Shown one piece after another: positions 17,191-23,569 of a DNA stretch of 64,000 nt. The DNA is from Candidatus Heimdallarchaeota archaeon (GTDB lineage Archaea; Asgardarchaeota; Heimdallarchaeia; Heimdallarchaeales; Heimdallarchaeaceae): contig JAUVXV010000014.1 of assembly GCA_030603365.1 (NCBI GenBank), forward strand, positions 59,752 through 123,751, read 5' to 3'. Below the pieces are notes generated by a model, which saw nothing but the letters and a program-made list of their open reading frames with translations, had not been told where the DNA came from and did not search any database. Position numbers and translations under genes: made by a program. Each line of letters starts with the position of its first letter. Position 1 is the stretch's first letter.

Positions 17191-17442
17191 GTGACAAATG
17201 TGTACTCAAGTATATTTCATCGATTTAGAAAAATCATAGTAGAAGTAGCAGATGTAAGAAGATATGTAGTTACAACAAATACTTATTTTGTAGACGATTT
17301 GCAGATGACCGAAGATAATTTGGTTGAATTAAGATTGAGAATTGTGAACGAGTTTGATATTAGTGTTCCCAAAAATATTTTCAAAGAATTCACTACAGTC
17401 GGAGAAATTGTAGGTTTTATAGAATCAGAACTAGGAAGGTAA
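17191..17442 (+). CDS. Acyl-carrier-protein-like protein lacking the phosphopantetheine Ser
   Basis: FVDDLQMTEDNLVELRLRIVNEFDISVP...TTVGEIVGFIE follows the ACP pattern, but the DSL motif reads TED. Confidence 0.65.
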   Translation: MTNVYSSIFHRFRKIIVEVADVRRYVVTTNTYFVDDLQMTEDNLVELRLRIVNEFDISVPKNIFKEFTTVGEIVGFIESELGR

Positions 17443-17482: not shown

Positions 17483-18766
17483 TTAGAGGAGCTTTTCTCC
17501 CTCTTCTAAACTTAACATTGTAAAACCGCTAATCATTTTTGGATAGAAATCTGTAGCTTTTTGTGGCATTCTTTCTCCATGTTTTGCAACTTTTAAGACT
17601 TGGTCAGCACTAGTCGGATTAAGAAAGAAAGCAACTTGGTATGTACCATTATCAACTTCTTCTACAGCTTCGTTCCACCATCTTTCATAGAAGATATCAT
17701 CATCAATATGCAAGTCACCTAATCCCATAATTCCATGGAAAATCATATCTCTAAGAATAACAACATCAAGACTTTTGAAATCGTCACTAACCTCACCAAC
17801 ATATCGATTAATAGAGGAAGGATCTTTCATAATAAGAGAAACAGCTCTACCATCTTGATAAAGAACAAAAACATGCTTATCCCTGTTTTCTTCCAAGAAT
17901 TTAGGAATGTCAGATTTGAGGATTTCATTCAAATCAAAGAATATCTTAAGTTCATTCATTTTCTCTTCTGAAACCTTAACTTTAGCTAAACAACGATGAG
18001 TAGCTAAAATGACTAAACCTTCATCTTCAACAGGAACCAAATAAGTCATACGAAATTCTGTAGCATTATCTTCCTTTAAGGGGTCTGCTGTTTCTCGACG
18101 CATATTTCTATAGGTAACTGCTGTTTCATAACGGTGGTGCCCATCAGCTATTACTAGTTGCTGATCTTTGAATACTTCTTGAACAATCTTGATATGAACG
18201 GAATCAGATAACTTCCAGATGCGGTTAATAACACCTAAATCATCTTTAGCATTAATCAAAGGAGGTTGCTTGGATATTTCATCAAATAGATTTATTGTTT
18301 TCTTATCTGGATCTGAATAGAGAATAAATCCTGTTTCAAGTGTATGTCTCGTAGTTTTCAACATATTCAATCTATCAATTTTTGGACCTTTGTGGGTCTT
18401 CTCATGTGGTAAAACTATTTTTTCTTCGAATGGATGTAAACGCAAAGCACCAATGAAACCTTTTCGGACATATTTTTTTCCAAATAATTCAAACTCTTGA
18501 TAGTAGATGTAGATCCCAGGAACATCATCTTTCACAAGAATTTCTTCTAACAGCCATCTCTCTAAACGCTGTCTAGCTATTTCATAACGATTTTCTTCAC
18601 TTGGTAAAGTTAATCTGCAATAATTGTAATCTGATTGATTATAATATTGTATTTGCATTTCTGCATCGATTTTATCATAGGGTTGAACAATTAATTTTTC
18701 AATATCCCCAGCTTTTTCTGTATATCTAATAGCCTTGAATGGTCTGATATCTACCATTGTAATCAA
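17483..18766 (-). CDS. DUF1015 family protein (ParB/Srx-like fold)
   Basis: IRPFKAIRY, PYD, LPHEKT, IADGHHRYETA, MPQKATDFYPK. Confidence 0.88.
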   Translation of the reverse strand: MITMVDIRPFKAIRYTEKAGDIEKLIVQPYDKIDAEMQIQYYNQSDYNYCRLTLPSEENRYEIARQRLERWLLEEILVKDDVPGIYIYYQEFELFGKKYVRKGFIGALRLHPFEEKIVLPHEKTHKGPKIDRLNMLKTTRHTLETGFILYSDPDKKTINLFDEISKQPPLINAKDDLGVINRIWKLSDSVHIKIVQEVFKDQQLVIADGHHRYETAVTYRNMRRETADPLKEDNATEFRMTYLVPVEDEGLVILATHRCLAKVKVSEEKMNELKIFFDLNEILKSDIPKFLEENRDKHVFVLYQDGRAVSLIMKDPSSINRYVGEVSDDFKSLDVVILRDMIFHGIMGLGDLHIDDDIFYERWWNEAVEEVDNGTYQVAFFLNPTSADQVLKVAKHGERMPQKATDFYPKMISGFTMLSLEEGEKLL

Positions 18767-18977
18767 ACTAGCTCATCAAGAACTCTATTTTAATTTTTTC
18801 ATTAGAATATAAATTATTTCGAGTTTTTTCGAGTTTTGTCTGATGAGAAGAACTTAATTTAATTTAAAAATAATGATATACCATTTCAATAGGATATATC
18901 GTCTTTAAGATATATCTTTAACAATGTTTATTAAAACCCATATCTGATGTTTACAAAAGAAGAAGGTGACATAAAAC

Positions 18978-20429
18978 ATGCCAAAAACAAAGCCTAAACA
19001 CTGTGAAAAGGTAATGCATCGTCTCTACATAAGAAAAGGTACTGAGAAAAGAAAGTGGATAGCAGTTGGCTATTATTGTGATGAATGTTCAATTATGATG
19101 AAGGAATATGACTTAACAAAATTAGGGGGAATACAAGAAATAACAATTGATGCTTCTAAATTAGTAGAAAAGGTTACGAATCCAAAGAAAGTTGTCCTAG
19201 ATCCAGGTTTTTCATTAACCAAAGTTGGTTTTACAGGAGAAAAAGAACCTAGATATATTTTTGATTCTGCAGTTTATTTCTCAGATACAGGAGAATCTTT
19301 CATTCAATTTGCAGATAAAGTTGAAACAAAAACTGAAGTTAAGATGAAAAAACCAATTTTTCGTAAAACAGAGCAAGGTGAAACCTTAGATAAAGATATC
19401 TTTAAGCTATTTCTCAAACATATTTTCGACAAACTTAAAGTGAAGTCTTCAGAAACAGCTTTTTGGGTTATTGAGAAATATCAGAAAAGAAATTTTGCAG
19501 ACTTCTTAAAAGGCAGATTAGATGTAATCAATAATAGTACTTTACCAGAAGAAGCTAAAGACGTTCTCAGAAAGGAAGGAATGGTTGAGTATGTCAATGG
19601 ATTTGAATCCTCATTCTCTATTCGACGAGCTATTGCTGAAGTATTCTTTAATGGTTTTAACATTCCTAAAGTTTATTTCTCACTCGGAGAACTCCTCTCA
19701 CTCTATGCTGATGATCAAGTAACGGGTGTTGTTATAGGGATAGGTTCAAACTCGACCCGAATCACTCCCATCTATGAAGGATATATTATATCTCATGGAT
19801 TAAGCATACGCGAGAAAGGGGGATTGGATGTTGTCAAACAGCTGGAAAAACACATCCAAAAAGAGGGCATAGATATACCCAAATCATATCATGCAAACTA
19901 TCAAATTCTAAAAAACACTCGATTAGCATCTGAAGAATTGTGCTTTGTTTCACAGAATGTCAAAGATGAGAATAAGAAATGGAAACAATCTGATAAACTT
20001 ATGAGATCTATCAATATTATCAATGATAAACACATTAGACTAAATGAAATCAGATATAAGTCAACTGAAATACTATTTGAAGAAGAACCTTTGAGTATTC
20101 TAAATAATCCTGGGGATTTAGCTGATGCAGTCATTGAATCTATTCAAAAATGTGACAAAGGATTGGTTAAAAGTCTATATGCTAATATTCTGCTAGTTGG
20201 AGGAGGTACAATGTACGAAGGATTTAAAGAAAGATTCACTCAGTCTTTCAAATCGAAAGTTTCAGATCAACTAAATTTCAACATCACTGCAAAATCTGAT
20301 AGACTTATATCAGCATGGATAGGGGGGTCAATACTCTCTGGAATGAAAATTTTCGAGGAACGTAATTTCTGGGTATCTAAAAATGAATATGATGAGAAGG
20401 GTTCATCAGCTGTAGATCAATGTATCTGA
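18978..20429 (+). CDS. Actin-family (actin-related) protein with N-terminal zinc-ribbon-like extension
   Basis: VVLDPG...TKVGFTGEKEPRYIFDS, LLSLYA, TPIYEGY, LYANILLVGGGTMYEGFKER, SAWIGGSIL, WVSKNEYDEKG...C. Confidence 0.9.
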   Translation: MPKTKPKHCEKVMHRLYIRKGTEKRKWIAVGYYCDECSIMMKEYDLTKLGGIQEITIDASKLVEKVTNPKKVVLDPGFSLTKVGFTGEKEPRYIFDSAVYFSDTGESFIQFADKVETKTEVKMKKPIFRKTEQGETLDKDIFKLFLKHIFDKLKVKSSETAFWVIEKYQKRNFADFLKGRLDVINNSTLPEEAKDVLRKEGMVEYVNGFESSFSIRRAIAEVFFNGFNIPKVYFSLGELLSLYADDQVTGVVIGIGSNSTRITPIYEGYIISHGLSIREKGGLDVVKQLEKHIQKEGIDIPKSYHANYQILKNTRLASEELCFVSQNVKDENKKWKQSDKLMRSINIINDKHIRLNEIRYKSTEILFEEEPLSILNNPGDLADAVIESIQKCDKGLVKSLYANILLVGGGTMYEGFKERFTQSFKSKVSDQLNFNITAKSDRLISAWIGGSILSGMKIFEERNFWVSKNEYDEKGSSAVDQCI

Positions 20430-20437
20430 TGATGAGA

Positions 20438-21508
20438 TTATTTTAAATCCCATATCTCTTTTGTTTTTCTTTCTAAATCTTCTAAACCTTCAAATGAAGG
20501 CTTCTTCTTTCCTTCCTCAATTTCATGAACAGTATCCAGAAGATATTTGTTTAGAGGAGTAGCTATACCTAATTTTTCTCCTTCTTGAACCAAATAACCA
20601 TTAAGATAATCAATTTCTGATTTTCTTCCCCATTCAATTGACTGAAGACTTGATGATTTTAGATTCTTATATTTCCTGCCAATAATTTTGATTATAGTCT
20701 GCTTAAAGAAATATCTAAATGAAAAACCGTGAAGCTCTTTTTTCTTAATTACTAAGGAATAAAAACTCAGATTGTTAAGTTTCTGTATCTCCAGATTTTT
20801 AGCATTAGCTACTTGTATTCCCTCTGTAATTATGGTTAAGAAAGCAATTCGAGTAGTCCTTCTTTTAAGCATCTCCCCCAATGTCATACCACTAATAACT
20901 CCAAAAGAAGCAATAGATAAGTTAATCAAAAGTTTGGAGAATTTGTCGTTTAAAATATTGTTTGACCATTTTGTTGGGACAGTAAAGGACAATTTCTCAA
21001 TAATATTGTCATCAATCTTTTGTTTTTCTCCAGTCATTCGCCCATAAACCATTTCACCTAATGAGGTTTTATTAGATTCAGCAGGACCTGTCTTCGATGC
21101 TCCAAAACTAACAACACAGCCAACAAGATTCTTTGCATTCAACCTTTCACTTAGTTTCTCTTCCATCATCCCATTTGTCATTGTAACAAGAGTGTAATCA
21201 TTACTTAGTTTTGGTTTAATTCTCTCTATTGCATCTTCTAAATGGTTAAGTTTTGTTACCATGAAAACTAAATCTAAATCATCAGGTAAATCTTCAATTT
21301 GTAAAACAGGTGTAAGATTTTCTTTTACTAGATATTCTCCACTAATCCCTGTTACTTTCAAACCACGGGAGTTTACAAGATCCAGTACTTCTTGATGTTT
21401 ACATACTACATATAATGGAAAATCATTCTTTGCTAAATCTGCAGCTATTACTGTGCCTATTGCTCCCAATCCTACTAAAGCCGTTTTCATTGAAAACCAA
21501 ATCATCAA
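20438..21508 (-). CDS. panE: Ketopantoate reductase family protein
   Basis: GLGAIG, MTNG, KLLIN, SSLQS, SEIDYLNG, TPLN. True start is probably the third Met (MKTALVG). Confidence 0.8.
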   Translation of the reverse strand: MMIWFSMKTALVGLGAIGTVIAADLAKNDFPLYVVCKHQEVLDLVNSRGLKVTGISGEYLVKENLTPVLQIEDLPDDLDLVFMVTKLNHLEDAIERIKPKLSNDYTLVTMTNGMMEEKLSERLNAKNLVGCVVSFGASKTGPAESNKTSLGEMVYGRMTGEKQKIDDNIIEKLSFTVPTKWSNNILNDKFSKLLINLSIASFGVISGMTLGEMLKRRTTRIAFLTIITEGIQVANAKNLEIQKLNNLSFYSLVIKKKELHGFSFRYFFKQTIIKIIGRKYKNLKSSSLQSIEWGRKSEIDYLNGYLVQEGEKLGIATPLNKYLLDTVHEIEEGKKKPSFEGLEDLERKTKEIWDLK

Positions 21509-21559
21509 GTAGATATTAAAACTTTCCTTGACAAATAAAAAGAAAATAGAAAAAGAACT

Positions 21560-22492
21560 TTACAGTTCTTTCAAAGCTTCGATAACACGCTCAGCTGCTT
21601 GAACACTAGCTCTCATGTTTCCTTCTTTGGTTTGAGCACCAATATGAGGACTGATTATGACATTTTCATGCTTTAATAGAGGATTATCTGCATCTGGAGG
21701 TTCTTTCTCAAATACATCAGTGCAGTAATAACCTAGTTGTCCTGAATCAAGAGCTTCGACAGCTTCTAATTCATTTACAATTCCTCCACGTGCACAATTG
21801 ACTAAAACAGTACCAGGTTTCAATAACTTGAATTGGTCTTTTCCAATCATATTCTTTGTTTCGTCAGTTAGCGGAAGATGTAAGCTTATATAATCAGCAT
21901 TTTGGAGAATTTCTTCCATTGATCCTTTCATATCGATTACTGGATTTTCAGGAGCAAATTTATCATATCCTATTGCATTCATTCCTAGTGCTTTGCACTT
22001 TACAGCAAGGCTTGTTCCTATTCGACCTGTACCTATCAATCCAAGAGTTTTTCCATCAATTTCTCTTGAGAATAATTCTTTCTTCATTGATTTGAAGGAT
22101 TCTGGATGAGCTTTAATCTCGCAAGTACCTTTAACAACATCCCTTGTAGAAGATAAAATCATTGTGAGAGCTAATTCAGCTACAGAATTTGTTGTTGCAG
22201 CTGGTGTATTTACTACTTTTATTCCTCTCTGCATTGTTGTTTCAAGATCAATATTGTCTAAACCTACTCCTGCTCTTCCAATTACTTTAAGATTTACTGC
22301 TTTTTCCAGAAGTATGCCACGCATTTTAGTTGCTCCACGTACAATTACTGCATCATACTCATGAATAATTTTGGGGAGCTCGTCTTTAGGAAGATCCCAA
22401 GCAACATTTACTTCAAATCCTGCATTTTCTAGAATTTTTACCGCTTTTTCATTTAATTTATCTGTTAGAATTACTTTTAGCATTTTATTCAC
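21560..22492 (-). CDS. serA: D-3-phosphoglycerate dehydrogenase / D-2-hydroxyacid dehydrogenase (no ACT domain)
   Basis: IGRAGVGLDNID, SVAE, GTGRIG, NCARGG, DVFEKEP, PHIGAQT. Confidence 0.8.
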   Translation of the reverse strand: MNKMLKVILTDKLNEKAVKILENAGFEVNVAWDLPKDELPKIIHEYDAVIVRGATKMRGILLEKAVNLKVIGRAGVGLDNIDLETTMQRGIKVVNTPAATTNSVAELALTMILSSTRDVVKGTCEIKAHPESFKSMKKELFSREIDGKTLGLIGTGRIGTSLAVKCKALGMNAIGYDKFAPENPVIDMKGSMEEILQNADYISLHLPLTDETKNMIGKDQFKLLKPGTVLVNCARGGIVNELEAVEALDSGQLGYYCTDVFEKEPPDADNPLLKHENVIISPHIGAQTKEGNMRASVQAAERVIEALKEL

Positions 22493-23569
22493 CTATAAAT
22501 TCCATACTTCTTCAATTGCTGTAAGGAGTTCTTTCAAACCTTCTAGAGTATGATCACCCATGTGTCCAATTCTGAAAGTTAGTCCTTTTAGCTTGCCATA
22601 ACCGTTTGCTATGACCAATCCTTTTTCAGCAAGTCCTTTGTTGAGTTCTCCAACATCTTTCTCCAACTTATTTTCTACAGTTGTAACTGTAACTGATCTA
22701 TATCCTTCTTCTGCGAATAGACCAAAACCATGTTCTAGAGCCCATTCATGTGTGTAATCAGCCATCTCTTTGTGACGTTTGGAGATATTCTCAGCACCTT
22801 CTTCCAGCATCTGTTTAAGTTTATAATCCAGTGCAAATAGAAGAGATATGTTTGGTGTTGAGGGAGTTTGTTTCTTCTTTTCATAATATCCAAGCACTTT
22901 TTCTAGATTGATATAAAGTCCCTTATTAGGAACTTCTTTTGCTCTATCCAAAGCTTTCTGAGACACAATCCCAATAGCAAGACCTGGAGGTAATGCGAAA
23001 CACTTTTGTGTTGAAGCAAAAACCAAATCTGTTCCCCATTCATCTGGTAATAATAAATCTCCACCCATTGAAGAAACAGCATCTACAACCAGTAAAGTGT
23101 TCGGATAATCTTTCAACAATTCACCAATTGCTTTCAGATCTGCTTTTACTCCTGTACTAGTTTCATTGAAACAAACAGTCACAATATCATAATCAGATTC
23201 ATCTAATTTTTCTTTAATCATTTCTGTTGTAATGGCCTTTCCCCATTCAACATCTAACTTATCAGCTGTTAGTCCGCTATCCACAATTGCTTCATACATT
23301 CTAGATGAGAATGAACCATTTACACATGCCAAAGCTTTTTTTCCGGGTCTAATTAGATTTCTTGCGGCTATATCCATAAACAGAGTTCCTGAAGCTGTAA
23401 GAGCCATAACATGTTGCTCTGTTTTGAAGAATTTGTGCAACTGAGTTAAAACACTATCATAAAGTAGTGTAAAATCATTACTTCTGTGCCCAAACAAAGG
23501 TTTAGCTTGTTGTTTTAAAACATCCTCTTTAACTTCTGTTGGTCCTGGTATCCATAATTTCTTTTGCAT
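22493..23569 (-). CDS. Class V PLP aminotransferase (serine-pyruvate/archaeal phosphoserine type)
   Basis: IPGPT, NETSTG, DAVSS, TQKCFALPPG, FRIGHMG; abuts serA. Confidence 0.88.
   Translation of the reverse strand: MQKKLWIPGPTEVKEDVLKQQAKPLFGHRSNDFTLLYDSVLTQLHKFFKTEQHVMALTASGTLFMDIAARNLIRPGKKALACVNGSFSSRMYEAIVDSGLTADKLDVEWGKAITTEMIKEKLDESDYDIVTVCFNETSTGVKADLKAIGELLKDYPNTLLVVDAVSSMGGDLLLPDEWGTDLVFASTQKCFALPPGLAIGIVSQKALDRAKEVPNKGLYINLEKVLGYYEKKKQTPSTPNISLLFALDYKLKQMLEEGAENISKRHKEMADYTHEWALEHGFGLFAEEGYRSVTVTTVENKLEKDVGELNKGLAEKGLVIANGYGKLKGLTFRIGHMGDHTLEGLKELLTAIEEVWNL

Follow-up and report, generated by a model that had tools for sequence, protein, structure and literature searches.

What an actin-related protein (ARP) might do with a cysteine- and histidine-rich head is the question raised by a gene of a Candidatus Heimdallarchaeota archaeon, located at positions 18978-20429 (+ strand) of the window, the whole stretch of 64,000 nucleotides analysed here. 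The gene is monocistronic and encodes 483 aa in a single frame, with a ribosome-binding site (AAGGTGA) at 18963-18969 (+) and its 3' end 8 bp from a convergent panE-like gene. The product comprises a head predicted to be a sequence-specific DNA-binding zinc ribbon (residues 5-42; 18990-19103, +), a variable linker helix modelled at low confidence (residues 43-62; 19104-19163, +) and an actin-fold body delimited by sequence and structural alignment (residues 68-483; 19179-20426, +). Both profile match and fold place the protein in the actin family: Pfam Actin (PF00022) spans residues 70-481 (E 5.9e-61, 206.7 bits against a cut-off of 27), and the AlphaFold model of the 483-aa protein (pLDDT 84) aligns with actin from residue 68-70 onwards (Z 40.6, rmsd 2.3 A over 350 residues). 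Among solved structures the closest in sequence was PDB 9wc4 'HC1 actin' (E 1e-45). The sequence-only reading of this DNA had proposed an N-terminal extension of about 70 aa with an HC...CDEC pattern; the Cys/His head is indeed in the same frame, but the extension is shorter, at about 65 aa (a 38-aa ribbon plus the linker helix). A separate N-terminal gene, which would have undone that proposal, was rejected because the head is fused in one frame here and in all 28 aligned full-length homologues.

The modelled head consists of an HC knuckle, a long beta-hairpin with a YIRKGT...RxW motif, a CxxC and a helix, with pLDDT >90 over residues 11-40. Among the 28 aligned homologues H8, C9, C34 and C37 were invariant where present, giving the two knuckles and four conserved ligands around a beta-hairpin that are typical of a zinc ribbon. 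The head was also the best-conserved part of the protein (column identity 75% versus 60% for the whole). A profile search of 1.8 billion proteins matched small standalone proteins with the same hairpin, in which the first knuckle is CxxC or CC, and this supports H8, C9, C34 and C37 as putative zinc ligands. These standalone ribbons (P0044-P0067; L112-L116) form a related family of 37-90 aa, some in tandem, and several sit among runs of short unannotated ORFs, which suggests mobile elements. Residues 1-66 had no Pfam match, PF13408 included; neither the head nor the insert in the actin body belonged to a family in Pfam, NCBIfam or PHROGs. Foldseek with the head gave no significant match, all scores of an Atlas feature search were <0.9, the head was absent from the viral contigs searched and there was no second copy in its own genome. 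The recurring structural neighbours, at weak scores, were the DNA-binding zinc-ribbon domains of large serine recombinases (PF13408), with TM 0.57-0.60 in five of the best six Atlas rows and Z 3.0-3.2 (weak, <4). That ribbon reads 9 bp of major groove through its beta-hairpin (PMC3783163). The head resembles the ribbons of the LI, Bxb1 and SPbeta integrases in having four ligands and a hairpin with aromatics of the kind that reads the major groove, but it has an HC knuckle rather than CxxC, no recombinase domain and no sequence match to them. A homodimer prediction with zinc (score 0.01) has no bearing either way.

Three palindromic boxes of consensus ATGRTATAYCAT (18873-18918) adjoin the TATA region upstream of the gene. 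Box 1 (18873-18884) is a perfect match to the consensus (ATGATATACCAT) and is near-invariant in 17 genus-level loci. Comparison of the same 17 loci defined box 2 (18891-18902), 18 bp after box 1, and box 3 (18907-18918), 16 bp after box 2, both with the core GATATATC. The GRTATAYC cores start at 18875, 18893 and 18909, the first inside the palindrome ATGATATACCAT. Directly after box 3 lies a putative BRE and TATA box of the actin gene (18920-18934, +; TTTATTAA at 18927-18934), recognisable as a conserved TTTA-tAa at near-fixed distance from box 3 in the 17 loci, with the TATA-like motif ~10 bp past the box. Boxes and spacing were fixed among the genus-level loci and the spacers were variable. 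The triple array is the only such cluster in the 3.65-Mb genome. It was present once per genome in 18 of 83 genomes of the class, always at this locus: 17 arrays lie directly before the fusion-actin gene and one before its remnant. A divergent DUF1015 gene (17483-18766, - strand) shares the intergenic region, but assignment of the boxes to it was rejected, as DUF1015 genes without the fusion gene have no array; the boxes accompany the actin gene where it sits apart from DUF1015.

The position of the boxes relative to the promoter differs between groups. In this genus they stop at the presumed BRE, which fits either an activator or a block to TFB. At L136, L141, L137 and L015/L016 they lie on both sides of the TATA-like motif or extend to the start codon, as would suit a repressor; at L136, L137 and L015 some boxes are located past the TATA box or at the start codon. 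Ss-LrpB of Sulfolobus likewise has three regularly spaced palindromic boxes before its own gene and shows concentration-dependent autoregulation with both activation and repression, but it is an unrelated HTH/RAM protein that controls neighbouring genes as well (PMC4046817).

To which part of the fusion the boxes belong was apparent from proteins in which the head is attached to another body. The box consensus was derived from actin loci and then applied out of sample to other head fusions. At least two boxes were present at all head loci (28 of 28), non-actin fusions included, and at none of 68 headless actins. P0043, P0076, P0082 and P0085 carry the head on a BtrH/C39-like body that is unrelated and shows no similarity to actin; the P0076 head is identical to the fusion-actin head at 25 of 33 positions. 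Four boxes lie upstream of three of these genes (L111, L136 and L142) and two at L141 (shuffle p 0.001 for the sets of L111 and L136). Between the BtrH/C39 loci compared, boxes were 98-100% identical (47-48/48) and spacers about 60%. Three boxes, differently spaced, also precede a distant actin fusion (p 0.005-0.01). Boxes were found in none of three full-length closest headless relatives of the BtrH/C39-like body; in a set of ten headless relatives, nine had none and the tenth had two overlapping weak matches. Elsewhere this body occurs alone or behind N-terminal ECF sigma, ArsR or AraC modules; the position taken by the head is thus one usual for DNA-binding domains. Four standalone small relatives of the head had no boxes; recognition would therefore be confined to the YIRKGT subtype.

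The boxes thus track the head and not actin, which makes the head most likely a sequence-specific DNA binder, and their conservation despite changing number and spacing argues for binding by the head itself. On this comparative evidence the head very probably binds the box, and it is likely, with somewhat less assurance, that it autoregulates the fusion-actin gene. It would most probably represent a zinc ribbon of a new kind, one that binds a specific DNA sequence and thereby controls its own gene. Palindromic sites in the own promoter that follow the DNA-binding domain are what an autoregulated one-component factor should have; perfect boxes marking targets other than itself were not found. 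The suggestion that the protein is a scaffold or nucleic-acid-associated ARP therefore holds for the nucleic-acid association and not for a generic scaffold, since head-linked boxes at its own promoter point to sequence-specific binding. The non-actin head fusions probably go back to a single event. The head-BtrH/C39-like gene is followed by GyrI-like and GNAT genes (L136:2673-5103, L111, L141, L142 and L143), its four boxes flank a TATA-like motif, and from this layout the system looks like an autoregulated small-molecule response operon.

ROK repressors such as NagC and Mlc combine an actin-like ATPase-superfamily fold of the sugar-kinase branch with an HTH DNA-binding domain. By analogy, the fusion could be a one-component transcription factor whose actin fold senses ATP/ADP, a metabolite or an actin-binding protein, although this appears unlikely, and equally so that its true targets lie beyond its own gene, for example at the divergent DUF1015 gene or at degenerate single sites. 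In its favour are the nucleotide-site residues retained in the body (D11, G13, K18, G156, E214 and G302), the normal regulator layout in which the non-actin head gene leads the GyrI-like/GNAT run, and the modulation of DNA binding by ATP in Arp8 (PMC4191963). However, single perfect boxes away from the gene occurred at control level in 31 genomes, and the two other perfect boxes in the own genome are both inside coding sequences. This excluded a wider regulon of perfect boxes, though degenerate sites may exist; the constancy with which the boxes stay with the actin gene apart from DUF1015 also speaks against a DUF1015 target.

About 30 full-length homologues of the fusion actin were found, nearly all from Heimdallarchaeia. 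Of these, 28 align end to end at 45-100% identity, the named ones nearly all from Heimdallarchaeota/Heimdallarchaeaceae. Of 400 Asgard genomes, 21 carried the head, each a single time and all in one order; there was one marginal match besides. In phylogenetic trees the head-bearing actins came together on a single branch (99/99 and 100/97) that excluded lokiactin and the other headless ARPs; the trees are unrooted, with long branches and no resolution at the base. Within those limits the earlier assignment to a non-canonical Asgard ARP agrees with a clade of its own (100/97). Its sister group is a fusion that stands nearer to lokiactin (P0078, 42% identical to it). None of the 2-5 unassigned divergent ARP-like sequences in the trees grouped with the fusion actins; no reference Arp4, Arp8 or Arp11 was among them. 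Three or four more headless divergent ARP lineages of 346-386 aa, without boxes, occur in related genera (L184-L189). Divergent Asgard ARPs are described in the paper on Ca. L. ossiferum as patchily distributed and expressed below lokiactin (PMC9834061). Among the papers listed on Asgard actin paralogues, judged mostly by their titles, none described the head-bearing clade.

The neighbours of the fusion gene differ between genera; in this one it is antisense to its surroundings, with a serC/serA/panE-like run on one side and DUF1015 on the other. In G008, G024 and G031 the site is otherwise intact but the gene has disappeared; in G024 (L183) apparently no more than its final two or three codons survive. 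In G025 the three boxes persist, together with ~16 terminal codons and a premature stop (L105:6190-6310). The repeated loss indicates that any role is dispensable, and the fusion gene with its boxes is an accessory cassette. The serC-like, serA-like, panE-like and DUF1015 genes occupy 17483-23569 of the window on the - strand; serC, serA and DUF1015 are contiguous in G002, G003 and G004, indicating that cassette and panE interrupt an older cluster. A copy labelled Thorarchaeota (L128, JBHLQZ010000118.1) shares its promoter and neighbour with the Heimdall genus and may be mis-binned or mislabelled. Also in the window, an 83-aa acyl-carrier-like ORF (17191-17442; PP-binding E 0.003, below cut-off), seemingly without a clear DSL serine motif, adjoins a luciferase-like monooxygenase gene.

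The parMRC partition system also pairs an actin-like protein with promoter repeats, ParM being an active polymer with a separate ParR adaptor. An actin fold with a DNA-binding module and an upstream repeat array echoes this layout, and with one array per genome and a surface pattern suited to a pointed-end binder, the boxes might be a parC-like site at which the protein tethers the locus to lokiactin pointed ends for chromosome positioning. This is improbable, however: there are just 2-5 boxes, placed around a promoter, the same array occurs at a non-actin gene, the cassette sits in varied neighbourhoods and is repeatedly deleted, and no cdc6 gene was found on the contig of the fusion gene. 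Type II parMRC, with its polymerising ParM, separate ParR and long plasmid-borne iteron array, also differs in arrangement: here there is a single fused gene, with three boxes, in a chromosomal housekeeping context.

Equally improbable is that another host factor binds the boxes, the head being a non-specific nucleic-acid- or protein-binding ribbon of a scaffold ARP, carried along with the promoter through linkage. Promoter and head are contiguous, so joint transfer by linkage could occur, and the P0078 head is nearer to the P0076 head (28/33) than to the fusion-actin head (23/33), which suggests a swap of the 5' module. Against this, a trans-acting factor with one target per genome would be required in several lineages despite changes in box number and spacing, and the conservation of the head above the rest of the protein would be left unexplained.

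For the actin body, residues were compared with the lokiactin of the same genome (L001), to which the fusion actin is 32% identical. The degenerate hydrolysis site that had been read from the letters was recovered in this alignment. The phosphate-1 loop is DPGF (D75-P76-G77-F78), Q137, D154 and H161 are replaced by G237, G254 and R261, and the Pro-rich loop is exchanged for an insert, put earlier at ~40 aa, of 49 residues in place of 8 between E107 and R116 (net 41 aa). The actin-like C-terminus is retained, C374 included. The inserted segment (19476-19622, +), which follows the retained E107 (E166), is family-wide and predicted to be helical. H73 of lokiactin is also replaced. The protein therefore lacks the Q137/D154/H161 set and intact Pro-rich loop of conventional actin. 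Several of these changes vary within the family: DPGF is no family constant, position 137 is G in 65% of members, position 154 is N in 70%, G154 not being constant, and positions 14, 15, 137, 154 and 157-159 vary freely. Other positions are family-specific constants (E238, 95%; R261, 100%; R278, 100%), the almost invariant Glu being at position 138 (E238), and these three may form a structural salt-bridge network or a rebuilt site.

The residues D11, G13, K18, G156, E214 and G302 of the nucleotide site are kept, and Q137, D154 and H161 mainly position waters in actin, the lytic water among them (PMC9618068). With the nucleotide residues retained and the water-positioning ones variable or exchanged, the protein likely binds nucleotide but does not hydrolyse it efficiently. 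The description 'catalytically dead' is probably apt, with the reserve that the six nucleotide-site residues are kept and E138 could act as a substitute carboxylate. R161 by itself is no sign of inactivity, as a headless archaeal actin clade shares it. That clade (L027-L104; 370-373 aa, ~42% identical to lokiactin) is large and conserved, has D137, E154 and R161, and is a candidate for an alternative active site. The sister actin fusion (P0089/P0078, 500 aa; L139:254-1756 and L140:350-1852) has a longer insert, has lost the P1 and P2 glycines, and has E137 and the original H161, a pattern indicating degeneration by another route than in the fusion family.

Conservation was unevenly distributed over the filament surfaces. 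Family identity to lokiactin was 0.67 at barbed-cleft sites, placed by general knowledge of actin positions and including half-buried residues, against 0.31 overall, whereas it fell to 0.06 for subdomain 2 on the pointed face, 0.17 for subdomain 4 and 0.16 for the inter-strand sites. Barbed-cleft identity was only moderate in the sister clade (0.50), and the barbed excess was less strong in other divergent actin groups. The D-loop region is six residues shorter than in lokiactin and unrecognisable, and subdomain 4 has five extra residues. Filament surfaces were not conserved even inside the fusion-actin family; the D-loop and inter-subunit surfaces are not those of a conventional actin. The earlier view that this is rather not a filament protein fits the loss of the pointed and inter-strand surfaces, and in all probability the fusion actin does not polymerise. 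An active polymerising ATPase with a rebuilt site, in which E138 and R161 replace Q137 and H161, would suit the three family-specific constants, the R161 of the headless clade and the mainly water-positioning role of the replaced residues (PMC9618068), but is very improbable given the freely varying positions of the site, the replaced Pro-rich loop, the unconserved filament surfaces and the loss of P1 and P2 glycines in the sister clade.

The same surface pattern, with the barbed face kept and the pointed face altered by a subdomain 2 deletion and insertions, led to the prediction that Arp11 of dynactin caps pointed ends and binds nowhere else on the filament (PMC2174220). Arp11 has no DNA-binding head or operator, and orthology is not claimed. 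Possible partners are encoded in the own genome, with two canonical lokiactins (L001 and L002) elsewhere and also gelsolins; profilin had no match in the genome, but the control matched nowhere either. The second lokiactin (L002:582-2622; G000 C13) is immediately preceded, perhaps with some overlap, by a 303-aa ORF encoding a basic GRPKKY motif and a coiled coil. Compared with lokiactin/asgardactin 01 (L001, L002; 9wc4), the fusion actin shares the fold, barbed cleft, C-terminus and the six kept nucleotide-site residues, but differs in its head, 41-aa insert, shortened and diverged D-loop region, replaced Q137/D154/H161/H73, separate long-branch clade, patchy and dispensable distribution, and promoter boxes.

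Taken together, boxes, promoter, head and pseudo-actin may constitute a self-dosing accessory cassette. The comparative evidence, which is strong, suggests that the head folds as a zinc ribbon through H8, C9, C34 and C37 and that its basic beta-hairpin would read ATGRTATAYCAT half-sites, with two heads per box. Occupancy of the 2-5 boxes around its own TATA box would set transcription of the gene, most likely by repression at high free concentration and possibly, as for Ss-LrpB, by activation at low occupancy. Since the gene is monocistronic and no regulon was detectable, what is useful must be the regulated product itself. The actin body, to judge from its surface pattern, could not extend a filament for want of a pointed face, and its kept barbed cleft might bind a lokiactin pointed end or a helix-bearing actin regulator such as gelsolin. 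The body is thus probably a dose-controlled, non-polymerising cap or decoy. That its output is a barbed-cleft partner is slightly favoured, as is the full proposal, in which a non-polymerising actin under its own control either caps the pointed ends of lokiactin or titrates a regulator of the gelsolin type. More speculatively, partner-bound protein might be drawn off the promoter, so that supply would track demand.

A more tentative and rather doubtful extension is a coupling, in a prokaryote, between DNA and the state of the lokiactin cytoskeleton: the fusion protein would grip pointed ends or actin regulators with its barbed cleft and specific DNA with its zinc ribbon, and would serve either to sense actin state for transcription or to tether the chromosome. 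Read in this way, with the same reserve, it would be an Asgard parallel to DNA-linked nuclear ARPs that arose independently. Nuclear Arp8 of INO80 is likewise a non-polymerising ARP whose N-terminal extension aids DNA binding, which ATP lowers (PMC4191963), but it acts inside a remodeller, prefers ssDNA, has no known sequence motif, and lacks a zinc ribbon or own-promoter boxes. The narrow, dispensable distribution favours a lineage-specific invention over an ancestor of nuclear ARPs.

A 38-residue domain and a predicted 12-bp site make this clade cheaply testable. If the proposal is true, the fusion would be an actin-family protein with sequence-specific DNA binding, for which we know of no precedent, and its head, together with the motif, a new family of DNA-binding domains. 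Asgard archaea would then also have experimented with DNA-linked, non-polymerising actins.
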